DNA of 11,143 bases. Source: a virus. Where the stretch lies: the UHGV virus genome UHGV-0105484, one strand, 5' to 3'. Position numbers and translations under genes: made by a program. Shown in pieces: positions 1-11,143 of the stretch. The stretch's first letter is position 1. Each line of letters starts with the position of its first letter. The notes under the pieces were generated by a model. That model was not told the origin of the DNA. It did not search any database and saw only the letters and a program-made list of their open reading frames with translations.

Positions 1-720
1 GATATTCTTGCCGAACATGCAGCCTTTCGCTGTCAGCGACCAGAATTTTTTGATGTTGTTAATCGCGGTACGGCTGTATCGTTCGCGCTGCTCGACGATC
101 CCCAGCTTCACCATCTGGTGATATGCCTGATTAGCTGTCAGGTGGATACCATACTGCTTCAGCAGTGCACTCAGTGACAGCGTGGGGCGGCTTGAGCCAT
201 CAGGCGCGTCAGCAGGAGCATCAATGGCATAGCGCGGTGCCAGATTCGGTAAGCCAACAGCCTCCTGGAGTTTCTGACAGGCACCAAGCACTGAAGAGTT
301 AGACAGATTTAACTCCCTGCGCATAAAGTCCAGCAGAATCACACCAGCCTGCATCTTGTCAGCAGCCTGCCCGGATAATTTTTCCGGTGCGCTGGTTACC
401 ATATCGAAAGTACGGATCACCTTTAGATGGAATGACGGGCTGATCCACATTGCATAGGCATACACCAGTTCTTTGCAGACATACGTTCCCCGTTCATTTC
501 CCCCATGAATCACACTCACCGGGTCAACACCCAAATTCTGGGTGTTGGTCAATTCATGAACAAGTTCAACAGTTTGTTGGCTGGAAAGAAACTTTCCTGG
601 CTCCTTGGTTCTGGCATTTGCACCAGATGCTACTGCTGCGCGATGCAGATCGTTCAGGCTGTAACGTCCATAAGCATCACGACGAACTTCAATACCATCA
701 ATGACCATCAGATTATTCAT
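1..720 (-). CDS. KilA-N domain protein (antirepressor-like); C-terminus cut by window edge
   Basis: Minus-strand reading frame from ATG 720-718 runs to position 1 without a stop. N-terminus MNNLMVIDGIEVRRDAYGRYSLNDLHRAA... is typical of KilA-N/Bro-type phage proteins. SD GAGGAG about 10 nt upstream. Absent from the ORF track only because it runs off the edge. Confidence 0.75.
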   Translation of the reverse strand, partial: MNNLMVIDGIEVRRDAYGRYSLNDLHRAAVASGANARTKEPGKFLSSQQTVELVHELTNTQNLGVDPVSVIHGGNERGTYVCKELVYAYAMWISPSFHLKVIRTFDMVTSAPEKLSGQAADKMQAGVILLDFMRRELNLSNSSVLGACQKLQEAVGLPNLAPRYAIDAPADAPDGSSRPTLSLSALLKQYGIHLTANQAYHQMVKLGIVEQRERYSRTAINNIKKFWSLTAKGCMFGKNI

Positions 721-739
721 ACTTCGTTTCTCCTCTTGA

Positions 740-1129
740 TCAGGCGGCTGCACCCGCCGTTTTCTCGTACTTACTGATAGTGATCTCGACCTTCCCTTCC
801 GGGATAACCGGTCCCCACTCCACCAGCATTCTTTTCACCTGACTGTCGTCTTCCCACACCCCCGCGTGGGTCAGGGCGTCAAACAGCGCCTTGTTATAGT
901 TGTCCAGATCGCGGATCCTGTTATCCGGAGGAAACAACACGATCTCCACTGAAGCAGGTGCCGACGTTGGTTTCGGCAGACGACGTAACTGTTCAACTAT
1001 TGCTGCGCACGCCGCGCTCTGAAATTTTCGCCCCGCCGCGCTTATCAGGCTCTTACCTGCAAACGCCCCTTTGTTGGGGTGTCGCCAGTACGTGTTCACG
1101 CTGGGCGGGAAAGGCAGGATCAGCTTCAT
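740..1129 (-). CDS. rusA: RusA-family Holliday junction resolvase
   Basis: 129 aa; motifs LPFPPSVNTYWRH and RIRDLDNYNKALFDALTHAGVWEDDSQV align with RusA (LPWPPSNNRYYRH ... [28 protein letters not shown]). Start ATG overlaps the upstream stop (ATGA). Confidence 0.85.
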   Translation of the reverse strand: MKLILPFPPSVNTYWRHPNKGAFAGKSLISAAGRKFQSAACAAIVEQLRRLPKPTSAPASVEIVLFPPDNRIRDLDNYNKALFDALTHAGVWEDDSQVKRMLVEWGPVIPEGKVEITISKYEKTAGAAA

Positions 1130-3829: not shown

Positions 3830-4030
3830 CTAATCTTTCGGATAGATATCCGGTCTTAAGTCAGATTTCGTAATTGCACCTGACGTGCATTGCTCAAGTT
3901 TTTTAGCCAGCACAAAACTGGCTTTTTTATAGCCATTGAAAACCAGCCGTAAGTAGCCAGATGTTGAGCCAACTTTTCCGGCCAACTCGCCCTGCTGTTC
4001 TTTGGTTAAAGAGTCCCAATACGCTTTCAT
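3830..4030 (-). CDS. Cro-like HTH regulator (YdaS/Cro type)
   Basis: 66 aa from ATG 4030, with strong SD GGAGG 11 nt upstream. MKAYWDSLTKEQQGELAGKVGSTSGYLRLVFNGYKKASFVLAKKLEQCTSGAITKSDLRPD has an HTH pattern. Divergent from the cI-like gene. The track's longer 167-aa ORF is an upstream extension without support. Confidence 0.6.
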   Translation of the reverse strand: MKAYWDSLTKEQQGELAGKVGSTSGYLRLVFNGYKKASFVLAKKLEQCTSGAITKSDLRPDIYPKD

Positions 4031-4120
4031 ACAATATGTACCTCCGGTGTACATATTACATGATTGAAATGAACCTTCAAGATACTTGTACCTTAACGGT
4101 ACAAGAGTTTTAATTTCGTT
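4031..4120. promoter_or_regulatory. Immunity switch region: divergent promoters and palindromic operators between cro-like and cI-like genes
   Basis: Two dyad sites share a GTACC/GGTAC core: 4034-4056 (atatgtac-ctccggt-gtacatat) and 4085-4105 (cttgtacc-ttaac-ggtacaag). Minus-strand candidate promoter TTGAAG-16-TAATAT precedes cro. Plus-strand candidate TTGTAC-17-TTTAAT ends about 7 nt before the cI ATG, which has no SD, suggesting a leaderless cI transcript as at lambda pRM. Confidence 0.5.
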
Positions 4121-4795
4121 ATGAAAACAATCCATGACATCCGGCGGTCTAACGCCAGAAAACTGAGAGATGGTGTTGGCGGGAATTCTTCCTTTGCCAC
4201 TATGATTGATCGCGAGCCAACCCAGACCAGCAGGTTTATGGGAGATGGTGCTACTAAAAATATCGGTGACAGCATGGCACGACACATCGAAAAATGTTTC
4301 GACCTGCCTGTCGGATGGCTCGATCAAGAACACCAGACAACGAACATCACAAAAAAACCTGATGTTTCAATCACTAATAAACAAATCACATTAGTCCCTG
4401 TCATATCATGGGTACAGGCCGGAGCATGGAAAGAAGTTGGATATTCTGAGGTTGATTTGAGCACAGCAGAAACGTATCCCTGCCCTGTACCCTGTGGGGA
4501 AATGACTTATATCTTGCGGGTGATAGGTGATTCAATGATTGATGAGTACCGCCCGGGAGACATGATTTTTGTCGATCCTGAAGTACCTGCCTGCCACGGT
4601 GACGACGTTATTGCATTGATGCACGATACAGGTGAAACCACCTTCAAAAGGTTGATAGAAGATGGGACACAGCGTTATCTCAAAGCGTTAAACCCAAACT
4701 GGCCTGAGCCTTACATTAAGATCAACGGTAATTGCTCTATAATTGGTACAGTGATTTTCTCAGGAAAACCAAGAAGATACAAAATCAAAGCCTAA
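4121..4795 (+). CDS. CI-like prophage repressor, HTH plus S24 (LexA-like) autopeptidase domain
   Basis: 224 aa; N-terminal HTH region; candidate Ala-Gly cleavage site (VQAGAW); catalytic Ser in GDSM and Lys in FKRL. Divergently arranged with the cro-like gene. Confidence 0.85.
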   Translation: MKTIHDIRRSNARKLRDGVGGNSSFATMIDREPTQTSRFMGDGATKNIGDSMARHIEKCFDLPVGWLDQEHQTTNITKKPDVSITNKQITLVPVISWVQAGAWKEVGYSEVDLSTAETYPCPVPCGEMTYILRVIGDSMIDEYRPGDMIFVDPEVPACHGDDVIALMHDTGETTFKRLIEDGTQRYLKALNPNWPEPYIKINGNCSIIGTVIFSGKPRRYKIKA

Positions 4796-4807
4796 TCAAT
4801 GTTTATG

Positions 4808-4831
4808 AACCTGCTTCGGCAGGTTTTTTTA
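4808..4831 (+). terminator. Rho-independent terminator downstream of cI
   Basis: Stem aacctgc / gcaggtt with loop ttcg, followed by a run of 7 T (4824-4830), 13 nt after the cI stop. Confidence 0.6.
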
Positions 4832-4834
4832 TAC

Positions 4835-4862
4835 TTGACAATGTACCTTTGAGATACATAAT
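4835..4862 (+). promoter_or_regulatory. Candidate pL-like sigma70 promoter flanked by operator-like half-sites
   Basis: TTGACA (4835-4840), 16-bp spacer, cATAAT (4857-4862). TGTACC motifs at 4842-4847 and 4862-4867 match the operator half-site seen in the cI/cro intergenic region. Confidence 0.45.
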
Positions 4863-5029
4863 GTACCCAAGCGAAACAACGAACAGGCAGGACGCCCACG
4901 AAGTAGCCGCCTGGGGCATATGAAGTCCAGGATGATTCGTTAGCAACAAAAAAGCGCTCTAAAGGACGCTTCGCTCTTTGACAATCTGGTCCCCATCAAC
5001 AAGTAACTGATAACTTGAGGAGGTGTGAA

Positions 5030-5236
5030 ATGCACAAAACAGAACCAAAAATCGTCGCACCCGGATACACAAATGAGGAAATTTACGAGTGGATGGCAAA
5101 GAAGCTGGCAGCTATAAACCAGCTTCGTGAAGTGCTGTCTTATCGACAGGAAACAATAGACTCCTTAAAAAAACTGGATCAGGAAATCACGGTTTTATCA
5201 CAGGATGTTACTTTAGATATTGTGCAGACAAATTAG
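5030..5236 (+). CDS. Hypothetical small acidic protein (68 aa), first ORF of the pL-like operon
   Basis: ATG 5030 with strong SD GAGGAGG 7 nt upstream (the track's 5015 start is TTG). No recognisable domain; not arginine-rich, so not an N-like antiterminator. Confidence 0.45.
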   Translation: MHKTEPKIVAPGYTNEEIYEWMAKKLAAINQLREVLSYRQETIDSLKKLDQEITVLSQDVTLDIVQTN

Positions 5237-5642
5237 GATCCCATTCATTTTCGTCAAAATCATCAAAGTGATGAATTTGTGATCTCCAGTCTCGATAATC
5301 TAAAAATTTCTGGGCGGTTACGCTTATTTTATCAAGCGTGAGTTCATCCTGAATTGAAAGAAGAAGTTCATCAAATTTCATCTCATTAATCTGTTTTGGC
5401 ATCCAGTGATGCTTCATCAGAATAAGGTGAACCAGAGCTTTTTTCCCATTCAACTGATTATAGGGAGTGCCGAATTTCTTCCGGTGCTCATGTAAGACAA
5501 GGTCCAGAAGAGTAAGTAATGTTGCCCTTGATTCAACTTTGCTTATTTCGACTGATGACACTACCCCACTGATTTCAATGCCCCGATACTTTCCAACATT
5601 TTCACAGTGGGATTTGTACAGCGTATAGATATTACCGGACAT
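5208..5642 (-). CDS. Hypothetical protein (144 aa), AT-rich accessory gene convergent with the 68-aa ORF
   Basis: ATG 5642 with SD AAGGA about 7 nt upstream. Soluble, no recognised motif. AT-rich relative to flanks. Its 3' end overlaps the 68-aa ORF by 29 bp. Confidence 0.5.
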   Translation of the reverse strand: MSGNIYTLYKSHCENVGKYRGIEISGVVSSVEISKVESRATLLTLLDLVLHEHRKKFGTPYNQLNGKKALVHLILMKHHWMPKQINEMKFDELLLSIQDELTLDKISVTAQKFLDYRDWRSQIHHFDDFDENEWDPNLSAQYLK

Positions 5643-5657
5643 TTCTTTTCCTTTTGC

Positions 5658-5709
5658 GTTGTTGGGGATAACCAGATTAACCGAATCCTTGTTGTTGGGG
5701 AATAACCAG
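5658..5709. repeat. Two direct repeats (18/19 bp) upstream of the 144-aa gene
   Basis: gttgttggggataaccag (5658-5675) and gttgttggggaataaccag (5691-5709), identical except for one inserted A, 33 bp apart, just upstream of the minus-strand SD/ATG at 5642. Confidence 0.55.
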
Positions 5710-6059
5710 GTCCACCTCGCCTGATGTGGCTAAAAGCAGGCACATAACAGCTAAGTATTTTCAACCAGAGAGAATTCTTAGCGTTGTGGTGAATGCGGCT
5801 CAGCGCACGCGGGTTAAGGTTGAGGCTGACAGTCGACCTTCTGTGGATACCCACCCGCCTGGTGTGCAACCTTCGCCAGGCACCGGGAGGCACCCGGCAC
5901 CACAACTTTATGCTGTGTTTTTACAAAACAGAGAAGAGCATCACCGGACGACGGGCTCATAACCCAATCCATCCGGGCGGCTGCCACCGCAGGTGTTCTT
6001 CTCTATTTTGTGGAGAAACTAATCGGCCTTGCAGGGTCGATATGATGAGGAGCAGCAAA

Positions 6060-8031: not shown

Positions 8032-8277
8032 ATGCTTCAAATGCTGACACTTGAGGAATGGGCTGCGGAAAAATTTAGGAGTAATCCTCCAAGTGTGTCC
8101 ACATTGCGTCGTTATGCTAAGCAGAATTTATTTTGTCCACCGGCAATGAAACAAGGTCGACTATGGCGAGTGCGTGAGGACGCAGAGTTAGTTGGGGAAT
8201 TAGTTACTCCTGTCATCAAGAAAAGTGATTCTATTATTCTACAAAGGATTTTAAGTAATGGCAGCCAGACCACGTAA
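8032..8277 (+). CDS. xis: Excisionase (lambda Xis family)
   Basis: MLQMLTLEEWAAEKFRSNPPSVSTLRRYAKQNLFCPPAMKQGRLWRVREDAELV... parallels lambda Xis (MYLTLQEWNARQRRPRSLETVRRWVRECRIFPPPVKDGREYLFHESAVKV). 3' end overlaps int by 20 nt, as in lambda. Alternative in-frame ATGs at 8017 and 8041. Confidence 0.8.
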   Translation: MLQMLTLEEWAAEKFRSNPPSVSTLRRYAKQNLFCPPAMKQGRLWRVREDAELVGELVTPVIKKSDSIILQRILSNGSQTT

Positions 8278-9385
8278 AAATAATGTTTCAGTCCCGAACT
8301 TGTATCCGCTCTATAGCAGAAAAGTAAATAAAGTCTATTGGCGATATAAGCATCCAGTGACCGGGAAGTTTCATTCTTTGGGCACAAACGAAGCTGAAGC
8401 CATTGCTATTGCCACTGAGGCCAATACACGCCTAGCTGAGCAAAGAACCCGGCAGATTCTGGCTATCAGTGACAGGATCGCAACCAGCAAAGGAAAAGCA
8501 ATCACAACGTCAACCTGGTTAGATCGCTATCAAGCAATCCAAGATGACAGACTGAAAAGTGGCGATATAAAGCTCAATACCTATAAACAGAAAGCCAAAC
8601 CAGTATCCTTGCTCAGGGAACGAGCAGGAATGAAGTTTATTTCATCCGTTGATGTAAGGGATATCGCACAATTGCTTGACGAGTATATCACCGCCGGGCA
8701 ACCGAGGATGGCGCAAGTAGTCCGCTCCGTTCTAATTGATGTATTCAAGGAGGCACAACACTATGGGGAAGTCCCTCCGGGCTATAATCCAGCACTGGCA
8801 ACCAAACAACCCAGAAGAAAAATTACCCGACAACGGTTAAGTCTTGAAGAATGGCAAAAAATCTTTGATATTGCAGATGCCAGTCATCGTTATATGGGGA
8901 ATGCCATGCTGTTAGCACTGGTTACCGCCCAGCGGTTAGGTGATATCTCACGTATGAAATTTAGCGATATTTGGGATGATCATCTTCACGTCATCCAAGA
9001 AAAAACAGGGAGCAAAATCGCCATCCCACTTTCCCTTCGCCTCAATGCGATTAACTGGAGTTTACGCGATGTAATAGCCCGCTGCCGTGACTATGCAGTC
9101 AGCCCATACCTGGTGCATTTTTTCCGTTCAACTTCACAAGCAGAACGTGGGGCACAGGTTAAATCCAATACATTGACGACGAATTTCAGTAAAGCGAGGG
9201 ATTTGGCAGAAATCGACTGGGGTGATGGCACACCCGCAACATTCCATGAACAAAGGTCTTTATCTGAGCGACTTTACGAAGCTCAGGGTGTCGACACCCA
9301 AAAACTTCTGGGGCATAAATCGCCTAATCAAACCGCTCGCTACCACGATGATCGCGGAAAGGAATGGATAAAGATTCAAAACTAG
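8258..9385 (+). CDS. int: Lambda-family tyrosine integrase
   Basis: 375 aa. N-terminus has an arm-binding-type region (PNLYPLYSRKVNKVYWRYKHPVTGKFHSLG). C-terminal catalytic motifs: Arg in TAQRLGD, HEQRSLSERLY (His-x-x-Arg box) and LLGHKSPNQTARYHDDRGKEW (Tyr nucleophile). Confidence 0.9.
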   Translation: MAARPRKNNVSVPNLYPLYSRKVNKVYWRYKHPVTGKFHSLGTNEAEAIAIATEANTRLAEQRTRQILAISDRIATSKGKAITTSTWLDRYQAIQDDRLKSGDIKLNTYKQKAKPVSLLRERAGMKFISSVDVRDIAQLLDEYITAGQPRMAQVVRSVLIDVFKEAQHYGEVPPGYNPALATKQPRRKITRQRLSLEEWQKIFDIADASHRYMGNAMLLALVTAQRLGDISRMKFSDIWDDHLHVIQEKTGSKIAIPLSLRLNAINWSLRDVIARCRDYAVSPYLVHFFRSTSQAERGAQVKSNTLTTNFSKARDLAEIDWGDGTPATFHEQRSLSERLYEAQGVDTQKLLGHKSPNQTARYHDDRGKEWIKIQN

Positions 9386-9398
9386 CGTAATTTATTTG

Positions 9399-9827
9399 TT
9401 AATTTCTAATAGACAAAAGGACTATTTGAATAACAATAAATATAATTTGTATTAAAGTTACAACTGCAAGAGTTAATGTAAGCGATGCGATAAAGTAGGT
9501 TTTAATACTTGAAAGACAAAGCAATGATAATAAAAGAGTAATACCAAGTTGAATAAAGCATACAAAATAAAAGATCATTGCGCCCTGTAAATATCCGTGT
9601 GCCCTAAATCTTTGTATGTTAGCATTATCTAAAGAAGTTAATATGACAATAAGAGCAAAAATGAGCGCCATCATTGCTGTCGCATACGATGCTAAAGCTG
9701 AACCAAGACCATCTAGATGTTCTTTGAAATTTACCCCCGGTAGAATATCATAGCGATATTTGTACACGCCAAAGCCAATAGCGTTTGTCATAATCGTTAA
9801 AACCACGGGGGGAAACCATTTAATCAT
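9399..9827 (-). CDS. RexB-like small integral membrane protein (4 predicted TM helices)
   Basis: 142 aa from ATG 9827, which lies 1 nt after the upstream stop (TGAnATG); the track's longer start is 9857. Four hydrophobic segments. Motif LPGVNFKEHLDGLGSALASYATAMMALIFAL matches lambda RexB as recalled (IPGVSFSAHRDGLGATLSSYAGTMIAIL); size matches RexB (144 aa). AT-rich. Confidence 0.6.
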   Translation of the reverse strand: MIKWFPPVVLTIMTNAIGFGVYKYRYDILPGVNFKEHLDGLGSALASYATAMMALIFALIVILTSLDNANIQRFRAHGYLQGAMIFYFVCFIQLGITLLLSLLCLSSIKTYFIASLTLTLAVVTLIQIIFIVIQIVLLSIRN

Positions 9828-9828
9828 T

Positions 9829-10644
9829 TCAGTATCCAGCAGCCCTAAGATCTGCATTATTAATAAAGTTAGTTACCATTTGGCTCTCTATAGATATATT
9901 TGCGTTTTTATTGACTATATCATAGATGCCACCCGTTGTCGCGACATGAAGCTCAATCGCTTGGTCTCCTAGCGCTTGCTTCGCCGCTATTGTCATTTCA
10001 CGGATACCTGCTGGTAAGTTGTTTAATGTTGGACTAATGGTATCCTTAATGTTTTTAAGATGTTTTGGTTTAATAGTAATTTCAAAACTGTCTACATCAT
10101 TAAGATCAACAGCTGTTATACCAAGAAAATTTGTCATCTCCCTTAACGCGAAAGGAGAATTAGGTTCTAATTTTACATTGATTTTCCCCATATGTGCATA
10201 CTGCAATGCCTGGGCTGGCGTAACAGTTTTCTTGATGGGCTCAAATCTTATATTTCTATTGTTATTCGTATTAAAGAAAAAGTTGTCATAATATTTACCA
10301 AAAGAGCCAATTTTGGGACCAAAGAGAGTCGAGCCATACCCTACACAACGATTAGAAATGTAAATATATGAGGCAAAAGCAACGTCCTGATTTTGTTGCA
10401 GCAATGCCGTAATGTCCTGGTAGTTGTTATTAACTCTATCGATGGTTTTTATAATGTCTGTATTATTTGTTTTTAAAAACATAAATACATCACCCAATAT
10501 ATGATGTATCGAGTAATACGAACCATCTAACCTAACTGTTTGTGTGTTGCTCTGAATGAGTTGCAGAAAAGAAGAGCTAAGAGAACTCGCAAGAGGTTGC
10601 CCGTTTTGCGGATAAAGATCATATTTGTAATAATTCGTTTTCAT
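9829..10644 (-). CDS. RexA-like soluble protein (271 aa)
   Basis: Complete ORF from ATG 10644 in a roughly 30% GC island. Size and position (upstream of and coupled to the membrane gene) match lambda RexA (279 aa). Recalled RexA motifs have counterparts: Y-x-Y-I-H, F-x-F-x-KTN (FMFLKTNN), T-x-FGP (STLFGP), I-x-IKPK (EITIKPK). Not confirmed by database search. Confidence 0.6.
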   Translation of the reverse strand: MKTNYYKYDLYPQNGQPLASSLSSSFLQLIQSNTQTVRLDGSYYSIHHILGDVFMFLKTNNTDIIKTIDRVNNNYQDITALLQQNQDVAFASYIYISNRCVGYGSTLFGPKIGSFGKYYDNFFFNTNNNRNIRFEPIKKTVTPAQALQYAHMGKINVKLEPNSPFALREMTNFLGITAVDLNDVDSFEITIKPKHLKNIKDTISPTLNNLPAGIREMTIAAKQALGDQAIELHVATTGGIYDIVNKNANISIESQMVTNFINNADLRAAGY

Positions 10645-10712
10645 CCCTAATCATCTTATGATTTATTGTAGGTAAACCTATTCTCTTCATTATGTGTTCA
10701 AAATCAATCGTT

Positions 10713-10744
10713 TTGATAAATTTTTTTGATAAATCTTTGATAAC
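10713..10744. promoter_or_regulatory. Three tandem TTGATAA repeats upstream of the rexA-like gene, near the icd junction
   Basis: ttgataaa (10713-10720), ttgataaa (10726-10733), ttgataac (10737-10744), spaced 13 and 11 bp, in the 160-bp gap between the rexA-like start and the icd stop. Confidence 0.4.
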
Positions 10745-10765
10745 CGTTCGAATACTAATAATATA

Positions 10766-10796
10766 AACGGGAACCATTTGGCTCCCGTTTTTGTTT
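10766..10796 (-). terminator. Hairpin terminator immediately downstream of icd (potentially bidirectional)
   Basis: 10-bp stem aacgggaacc / ggctcccgtt (one mismatch), loop attt. Followed on the plus strand by TTTTTGTTT and on the minus strand (icd sense) by a U/A-rich tail, 16 nt after the icd stop. Confidence 0.55.
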
Positions 10797-10811: not shown

Positions 10812-11143
10812 TTACATATTTTCGATGATCGCATCACCAAACTCTGAACATTTCAGCAGTTTAGCGCCTTCCATCAAACGTTCGAAGTCATAGGTTACGG
10901 TCTTCGCATTGATTGCGCCTTCCATACCTTTAACAATCAGGTCTGCGGCTTCGGTCCAACCCATGTGGCGTAACATCATCTCAGCAGAGAGAATAATAGA
11001 GCCTGGGTTAACTTTGTCCTGACCGGCATATTTCGGCGCAGTACCGTGGGTAGCTTCAAACAGGGCGCATTCGTCACCGATGTTTGCGCCAGGGGCGATA
11101 CCGATACCGCCAACCTGCGCTGCCAGGGCGTCAGAAATGTAGT
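10812..11143 (-). CDS. icd: Isocitrate dehydrogenase (NADP), C-terminal fragment; prophage attachment target
   Basis: Minus-strand translation reads ...[96 protein letters not shown], the enterobacterial Icd C-terminus. Host-like GC content, unlike the adjacent AT-rich island. Confidence 0.95.

Follow-up and report, generated by a model that had tools for sequence, protein, structure and literature searches.

A convergent, 3'-overlapping gene pair in the pL operon of lambdoid prophages: a candidate two-gene cargo module expressed in opposite phage states

In this study, we asked why two small convergent genes with overlapping 3' ends are carried beside the immunity region of a lambdoid prophage, and in which phage state each of them would be expressed. 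The two genes, ORF68 and ORF144 (for open reading frame), lie on a stretch of 11,143 nucleotides from the virus genome UHGV-0105484, the whole of which is referred to here as the window. It represents an SfIV/SfV-type lambdoid prophage whose integration site adjoins the 3' end of icd; Shigella phage SfIV is 98 % identical to it over positions 4800-5800, and Escherichia coli ML35 matches a 671-bp cassette (window 4990-5660) at 100 %. The answer that we put forward tentatively, with slightly less than even confidence, is that temperate enterobacterial phages carry ORF68 and ORF144 as a single mobile cargo module whose two genes are active in opposite states of the phage. The pair consists of the following features:

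5030-5236 (stop codon 5234-5236), plus strand: ORF68, encoding an acidic protein of 68 amino acids (PHROG 1744), with its ATG at 5030.
5642-5208, minus strand: ORF144, encoding an ECs1072-family protein of 144 amino acids (NF033230 / PHROG 5286).
5208-5236: overlap of the 3' ends of ORF68 and ORF144, 29 bp here and 29-92 nt in relatives.

The way its sequence has diverged shows ORF68 to be a real gene under purifying selection. Its start codon follows a GGAGG Shine–Dalgarno sequence at a distance of seven bases, the calculated isoelectric point (pI) of its product is 4.97, and the protein matches PHROG 1744 over its full length (E 4.8e-34, 68/68 positions). By profile search, family members were found in Klebsiella, Atlantibacter, Serratia, Arsenophonus, Citrobacter and Salmonella. 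The length is held at 64-85 amino acids across deep lineages, together with the ribosome-binding site and an N-terminal motif, M-x-K-x-E-P-K-I-x-A-P...E-E...W, and both full length and motif are retained down to approximately 20-36 % identity. Within the family P6 and W21 are invariant and E16 is nearly so, and the N-terminal motif is kept within each of the types of genomic slot described below. Per comparison, 5 synonymous substitutions stand against 2-3 non-synonymous ones, where neutrality would give a ratio of about 1:3.6. The AlphaFold2 model, with a predicted local distance difference test score (pLDDT) of 87, consists of an extended N-terminal peptide of 14 residues followed by a single 53-residue helix (residues 15-67). 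In the Escherichia albertii locus L008 the frame is shifted after residue 47, and several database variants diverge past approximately the same residue. Scans of both proteins against Pfam and PADLOC-DB v2 were run at E values up to 1 and gave, for either of them, no PADLOC model and nothing above noise in Pfam; the ORF68 profile, when compared with PDB sequences, found only compositional matches to designed coiled coils.

ORF144 is likewise a real gene under purifying selection: near relatives, compared with it in four pairs that are not independent of each other, give a sum of 12 synonymous and 0 non-synonymous differences, and the ratio of non-synonymous to synonymous differences per site (pN/pS) is 0.33 against a homologue of 72 % identity. 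The protein matches the NCBIfam family NF033230, 'ECs1072 family phage-associated protein', with 157.8 bits against a cutoff of 70 (residues 4-144), and PHROG 5286 with an E value of 1.5e-90 over 144/144 positions. An exhaustive profile search collected 76 clusters at 50 % identity, in which the full-length homologues are single-domain proteins of about 145-155 amino acids and the remainder are shorter fragments; the named sources are Salmonella, Citrobacter, Enterobacter, Providencia, Proteus, Pantoea, Erwinia and one Pseudomonas. L50, R54, L64, G66, A69 and H72 are near-invariant, and W134 is invariant. ORF144 is hydrophilic, with a grand average of hydropathy (GRAVY) of -0.47, so that both members of the pair are soluble and mildly acidic, and its AlphaFold2 model (pLDDT 78) is an all-helical, compact bundle of short helices. 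Comparison of the ORF144 profile with PDB sequences found nothing, and when 47 and 22 members of the families were scanned with Pfam, PADLOC and NCBIfam, only name-only families came back. NF033230, PHROG 5286 and PHROG 1744 are all name-only families, and both proteins are annotated as hypothetical. An earlier note on this DNA had described an acidic 68-amino-acid plus-strand frame with a strong Shine–Dalgarno sequence, a 144-amino-acid minus-strand frame (5208-5642) and an opposite-strand 3' overlap of 29 bp, all of which agrees with what we find; its statement that the larger protein carries no recognisable motif is corrected by the match to NF033230.

The pair is conserved as a unit. Using hidden Markov models (HMMs) built from both families together with gene-context look-ups (retrieval of genome context with a narrow family alignment gave only three genome loci), the convergent, 3'-overlapping arrangement was found in approximately 11 diverged lineages from Escherichia, Klebsiella, Serratia, Citrobacter and Salmonella. 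An overlapping small plus-strand gene and large minus-strand gene were verified by HMM in the window, SfIV, Kati and loci L010, L014, L015-17, L019-22, L023-25, L033 and L034-37. Among 5426 complete E. coli genomes, the pair is present in 432 (about 8 %), and its carriers include SfIV, a Shigella serotype-converting phage. Two kinds of slot are clear. In the first the pair follows pL, with a 29-nt overlap in the window, SfIV, Kati and L012/13, and also in the Klebsiella loci L015/16 and L019-22, where it stands behind four different immunity regions; the overlap is 44 nt in L010 and 62 nt in L017, and the frameshifted E. albertii copy (L008) belongs here as well. In the second the pair lies between a late-gene regulator and the holin gene, with overlaps of 74 nt in Serratia (L014, L034/35), 83 nt in Citrobacter (L023-25), 92 nt in Klebsiella variicola (L033) and 71 nt in metagenomic sequences (L036/37); the Salmonella loci L026-28 have the same slot with a truncated large gene. 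A third slot is probably the pR operon of the E. coli O157:H7 Sakai prophage Sp4 (L032, 19116-19851). There ECs1072 (now ECs_5703), a distant family member (HMM E 2e-12), lies between a cII-like gene and O, antisense to pR; converging on ECs1072 is an unannotated plus-strand reading frame that weakly resembles the small family (E 0.004).

The orientation is the same in all contexts: the lytic operon around the pair is always read in the direction of the small gene and opposite to that of the large gene. The large gene opposes pL in the window, L019-22, L007 and L018, the late operon in L014, L023, L026 and L033-36, and pR in Sakai (L032); the extra copy in L021 likewise opposes pR. The late-operon versions have a strong hairpin followed by a U-run 10-15 nt 5' of the ribosome-binding site of the small gene; its folding energy is -16 to -18 kcal/mol for Citrobacter and Salmonella and about -13 kcal/mol for Serratia L014. 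In both slot types the small gene thus comes after a promoter or antiterminator and then a terminator. Loci that differ more in one partner protein also tend to differ more in the other (r = 0.59 for 15 pairs, which are not independent). The idea of mutual antisense coupling put forward in the earlier note is strengthened by a layout that has been kept in approximately 11 lineages and at least two phage operons.

Three further observations concern the pair. Locus L021, a Klebsiella-type prophage, carries at 489-1079 (plus strand) a second ECs1072-family paralogue between a CP76 cII-like gene and cro, opposed to the early operon. In L031 (E. coli O145:H28 RM13516, 1799-2961) an IS3-family element lies between ORF68 and ORF144, and the last few codons of ORF144 have been lost. 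At window positions 5238-5247, a palindrome, TGGGATCC(C)A, encodes the invariant EWDP of the large protein, and in the late-operon versions L014, L023, L026 and L029 the small protein reads ...FPWDPSP through the same palindrome on the other strand, so that in these versions both proteins would obtain WDP from one site.

The next question is what controls the small gene in the window, and this depends on the identity of the promoter in front of it. The features of the immunity region are:

3830-4030, minus strand: cro.
4037-4053 and 4087-4103: oR operators, exact copies of TGTAC-N7-GTACA in the cro/cI intergenic region.
4121-4795, plus strand: cI-type repressor gene (Peptidase_S24, Pfam PF00717, E 1.5e-26), annotated as cI in SfIV.
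4807-4826 (whole feature to 4833), plus strand: intrinsic terminator of the cI transcript, an 8-pair stem with a T-run, annotated as a terminator in SfV.
4835-4862, plus strand: pL, a near-consensus sigma-70 promoter (TTGACA, 16 nt, CATAAT; 11/12) identified by promoter scan.

A copy of the cI operator with a single mismatch is located at 4842-4858, within the spacer of the 4835 promoter. The TGTAC-N7-GTACA sequence occurs three times in the 11-kb window, where 0.21 copies are expected, and three copies were reached in 1 of 200 shuffles. In related phages of other immunity types the promoter and its spacer vary, and the sequence just 3' of them is constant. Because the spacer contains a cI operator and the promoter is immunity-specific in relatives, we identify 4835-4862, from its sequence, as pL/oL under cI repression. 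An operator-bearing pL ahead of ORF68 places the pair in the pL operon, where it is the first cargo and lies outside the rexAB slot, and ORF68 should be repressed in a lysogen. In lambda, N and sieB occupy this same first position in the pL operon. The earlier note had located the pair in a slot equivalent to that of rexAB, which is not upheld, as the cI terminator and the operator-bearing pL precede the pair; its recognition of a cI terminator and a strong promoter in this interval was correct. The GC content is 38.2 % for ORF144 and 40.1 % for ORF68, compared with 44.7 % for cI, approximately 51 % for the yfdP-like flank, 45-52 % for the neighbours and 46.2 % for the whole window. The AT-richness that had been noticed for the larger gene is therefore real, and the description of the two genes as uncharacterized moron-type cargo beside the immunity region still fits.

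Comparison with SfV, SfII, mEp460 and PhiR29_1 defines a cargo slot with fixed flanks. On the left, pL and a leader are common up to 4941 or 4989, and on the right the sequence is common from 5658 or 5712 onward. Between them the window, SfIV and Kati carry ORF68/ORF144, PhiR29_1 has a different minus-strand reading frame, SfV a plus-strand frame of 98 amino acids, SfII a minus-strand frame of 63 amino acids and mEp460 a helix-turn-helix protein. The slot flanks are 93-98 % identical between modules with proteins that are only 36-52 % identical. The elements within the flanks are:

4869-4945 (core 4879-4941), plus strand: structured leader RNA with which the pL transcript begins, kept in relatives.
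4972..4951, minus strand: hairpin with a U6 tract found by terminator scan, the putative terminator of the ORF144 transcript.
5658-5709, minus strand: two direct repeats, CTGGTTAT(T)CCCCAACAAC, 5' of the ORF144 start codon, read directly from the sequence.
5711-5745, minus strand: motif GCCTG..TTTT..CCACATCAGGC..GTGG 5' of ORF144, kept in relatives.
5712-6036, plus strand: structured RNA of the right backbone flank, common to SfV, SfII, mEp460 and PhiR29_1.

The leader RNA recurs in phages of Escherichia, Shigella, Salmonella, Klebsiella, Yersinia, Pectobacterium and others, 51 records in all, and starts about 8-10 nt past the -10 element of immunity-specific pL promoters. Its consensus has 15 base pairs, three of them with compensatory changes; the covariance model scores 100.5 bits in the window, and no Rfam family matches the leader. 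We regard it as a candidate processive-antitermination or regulatory element. The minus-strand signal at 4972..4951 lies beyond ORF68 as read from ORF144, is 85-95 % kept in L010, L015/16 and L019-22 as well as in PhiR29_1 with its different cargo, and probably terminates the cargo transcript. Its position implies that the ORF144 mRNA would run across the whole of ORF68 and not merely the 29 bp of overlap that the antisense idea had started from. On the other side, the repeats at 5658-5709, presumably located in the 5' leader of ORF144, are 93-98 % kept in L010, L015 and L019-22 while the proteins are 36-52 % identical, and are also found 5' of the unrelated cargo gene in PhiR29_1; they may serve translation control, act as a regulator site or mark a recombination boundary. 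The adjoining 5711-5745 motif reads, in L014, L017 and L018, as a -35 element, a 16-nt spacer and a TGnTATnnT promoter sequence. The structured RNA at 5712-6036 folds with a z score of -5.4 on the plus (pL) strand compared with -1.65 on the minus strand. Prophage small RNAs include STnc100 and PasD; an STnc100/PasD-like match to STnc100 (RF02076) at 5785-5904 was sub-threshold, with 35.6 bits against a gathering cutoff of 47.

Taken together, these features suggest the following mechanism. Because the small gene stands behind the cI-controlled pL and its leader, or elsewhere behind a late-gene antiterminator and a terminator, the arrangement strongly supports, if it does not already show, that ORF68 can be produced only in lytic transcription. 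In a lysogen, pL would be off and ORF68 silent, and ORF144 would be transcribed from its own upstream region into an mRNA that extends antisense across all of ORF68 to approximately position 4945; this antisense tail could mop up any leaky ORF68 message. The ORF144 protein would then be the effector of the module in the lysogen, most plausibly one that excludes or aborts superinfecting phages or that alters the host. On induction or infection, pL transcripts, carrying the leader in place of an antiterminator RNA, would allow ORF68 to be translated first and would then run for approximately 400 nt antisense through ORF144 into the delayed-early genes, and head-on collision and double-stranded RNA would silence ORF144. 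As ORF144 protein made earlier would persist, and a small protein made only in the lytic state is co-inherited with it, the simplest reading is that ORF68 may bind and neutralize (or redirect) the leftover ORF144 protein and so spare the phage's own lytic growth.

An effector for exclusion, abortive infection or host modulation is favoured because the layout resembles two known systems. One is the superinfection-exclusion locus sieB–esc of P22 and lambda with its sas antisense RNA, reportedly described by Ranade and Poteete in 1993. As in the pair described here, a lysogen-expressed gene lies inside the pL operon and near its promoter (in lambda it is read in the direction opposed to pL), a second product protects the phage itself, and the switch is made by antisense transcription. 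However, SieB is a membrane protein of approximately 190 amino acids, whereas ORF144 is soluble, has 144 amino acids and is without a Pfam match; similarly, Esc is an in-frame internal product of sieB, whereas ORF68 is a separate convergent gene. On these grounds (a hydrophilic ORF144, no Pfam match and a partner encoded separately), the pair was not assigned to the SieB/Esc group. The other is BstA–aba, in which BstA is a single defence protein and the immunity element aba is a DNA site. The system combines a prophage-made defence protein with a component through which the lytic development of the phage itself is left unharmed (PMC8585504). The concept is the same, but there is no relation of sequence or fold, and a role of ORF68 in self-immunity is something we only infer.

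Three other systems invite comparison. In coliphage 186, the transcription units driven by pR and pL face each other, and the lysogenic promoter, the weaker of the two, is suppressed by the strong lytic promoter; those units are the core switch genes, whereas accessory cargo is concerned here and the overlap spans two whole coding regions. The rexAB genes of lambda occupy the interval from cI to pL and are part of the cI transcript, whereas in the window nothing lies in that interval. They share with the pair the character of a two-gene prophage module near the immunity region, with an expected expression in the lysogen that affects other phages, but here a terminator and pL/oL part cI from the pair; moreover, the RexA and RexB models of PADLOC miss ORF68 and ORF144 and match two genes elsewhere in the window, listed below with their E values. 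The leader can be compared with the putL antiterminator RNA of HK022 (PMC9378689). Both are structured, approximately 70 nt long, start within about 10 nt of the pL start and belong to phages free of an N-like gene, and they have short strings in common (ACGAAC and CAGGAUGA), but their predicted topologies differ. As the covariance model of the leader misses HK022 putL and putR (L030/L011) and finds no second copy in the window (E up to 10, filters off), the leader is put-like in position only. In kind, the module is prophage cargo with a lysogen/lytic toggle.

Several findings weigh against the proposal of one module with opposite expression states. The terms effector and antagonist are ones that we infer from the gene layout alone, and a role in exclusion or defence is a putative one. 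The remote homology searches and structure prediction that the earlier note had called for led only to name-only families; a fold search with the ORF144 model gave no match, and neither protein resembles defence, exclusion or regulatory proteins in Pfam, PADLOC or PDB sequences. Support from the neighbourhood is also unavailable, since defence annotation was found neither on the other slot cargo (PhiR29_1, SfV orf33, SfII_36, mEp460) nor on the late-operon neighbours, which removes any argument from a defence hotspot. The large gene occurs without ORF68 in L007 and L018 and as an extra copy in L021, the small gene is alone in L029, and its partner has decayed in L026-28; from these copies and the ORF68 frameshift in E. 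albertii (L008), the partnership is not obligatory. The hairpin at 4972..4951 is weak (-8 kcal/mol, z about 0), the -10 element of the 5711-5745 motif is not recognizable in the window, and a scan of the window for consensus sigma-70 promoters found no minus-strand promoter for ORF144. As for expression, a microarray study recorded a signal for ECs1072 in uninduced Sakai cultures, with a two-fold change for the probe (PMC2241611). This signal is weak, comes from a distant family member and is probably not strand-specific. In a limited literature search, the pairing of the large gene with the small one and the orientation rule were not found described, 'ECs1072' appeared only in one microarray table, and the NC-SV/svsR paper, which deals with a related icd-integrated prophage, does not mention the ORF68/ORF144 genes.

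How far the two proteins act together is the point on which the explanations divide. The main alternative, which we consider rather unlikely, is that they are coupled at the level of RNA and transcription only: ORF144 would be a lysogenic-conversion or host-modulating moron and ORF68 a separate early or late lytic accessory with a host target, and the two would travel together as a compact convergent on/off switch without any contact between the proteins. The conserved convergent layout and the placement of the terminators are what such a switch would look like, each gene persists without an intact partner (L007, L018, L029, L026-28), and as the overlap ranges from 29 to 92 nt no specific overlapping sequence has been kept. 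However, different genera carry the pair, in two or three operon slots that are unrelated to each other, and the divergence of the partners is correlated, both of which are easier to understand if the two products serve the same process. The pair could also be a hitherto unrecognized two-component prophage immunity system in which ORF144 is an anti-phage effector, acting by exclusion or abortive infection and switched on only in the lysogen, ORF68 is its dedicated antidote and the earliest product of antiterminated lytic transcription, and gene orientation relative to the phage's lytic promoters distinguishes self from non-self. We think this reading unlikely; if it were true, the pL and late operons, and probably that of pR as well, would all have made use of one architecture.

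The earlier note had also proposed assays for a toxin–antitoxin or addiction module, in which one product is toxic and the other product, or an antisense RNA, neutralizes it. A small two-gene cassette on a mobile element has the appearance of such a module, and overlapping transcripts are reminiscent of the antisense control of types I and III, but the idea fits poorly and we judge it improbable. The genes are convergent and not one co-transcribed operon, ORF68 stands behind a repressed pL so that a lysogen would have no supply of antitoxin, both proteins are acidic, soluble and free of toxin or antitoxin domains in Pfam and PADLOC, and the membrane peptide typical of type I is absent. Added to this, the large gene is solitary in L007 and L018, and the small gene is found alone (L029) or with a decayed partner (L026-28). 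Membership of type II in particular was rejected on the convergent genes, the absence of Pfam and PADLOC domains, the absence of a fold match for ORF144 and the unpaired copies. Slightly more improbable still is that ORF68 is an early regulator like lambda CIII or Kil, for instance a protease inhibitor guarding a CP76-type CII, with ORF144 as an unrelated hitch-hiker. Like CIII, ORF68 is small, helical and encoded early in the pL operon, and the single short stretch that hhalign aligns (residues 14-24, which starts just ahead of the helix) is matched with the active helix of CIII; yet in half of the lineages the pair lies between Q and the holin gene, in the late operon, where a factor in the lysogeny decision would be useless. 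A direct assignment to CIII failed, with an hhalign probability of 0.4 % and no match to PF02061 for ORF68 (E up to 1) or for two family proteins (E up to 10), where lambda CIII itself gives 1.5e-30. The least probable explanation is that ORF68 is an untranslated by-product of a conserved 3' untranslated or antisense part of the ORF144 transcript. The E. albertii frameshift after codon 47 and the divergence of database variants past about residue 47 agree with it, but they are set against a strong Shine–Dalgarno sequence, a frame of 64-85 codons in all lineages, residues conserved at a divergence too high for DNA alignment and an excess of synonymous over non-synonymous changes.

The module is a common one, found in Klebsiella, Salmonella, Citrobacter and Serratia prophages besides those of E. 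coli, and its regulatory layout is unusually consistent. A large gene that is always opposed to a lytic operon, combined with a small co-directional gene placed directly after a point of antitermination, suggests a general strategy by which temperate phages could carry a function for the lysogen only and turn it off, and possibly neutralize it, at the lytic switch. Should defence prove to be the function, the module would offer a new effector fold and a simple self-immunity logic; should it not, it would be a clean natural model of transcriptional interference or antisense control between a cargo gene and its host phage. In either case, the mapping of a slot with fixed flanks (leader RNA and terminator on one side; promoter, repeats and structured RNA on the other) aids the mining of lambdoid prophages for accessory genes.

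Elsewhere in the window, two genes correspond to rexA and rexB:

9399-9857, minus strand: RexB homologue (PADLOC, E 5e-55).
9829-10644, minus strand: RexA homologue (PADLOC, E 1e-103).

These genes have a GC content of 34-36 % and lie at the attachment-site end, between the integrase gene (8258-9385) and the 3' end of icd (10812-10979). Between rexA and the icd 3' end, positions 10710-10795 (plus strand) show a partial match to the 3' part of STnc150 (RF01402), with 49 bits against a gathering cutoff of 60 (E 6e-8), which includes a terminator-like hairpin. Finally, a match to mir-5880 at 2509-2583 was spurious; this segment, inside the O-like replication-initiator gene, consists of dense inverted and direct repeats of the TCAAAATCTGAC type, which are probably origin iterons.

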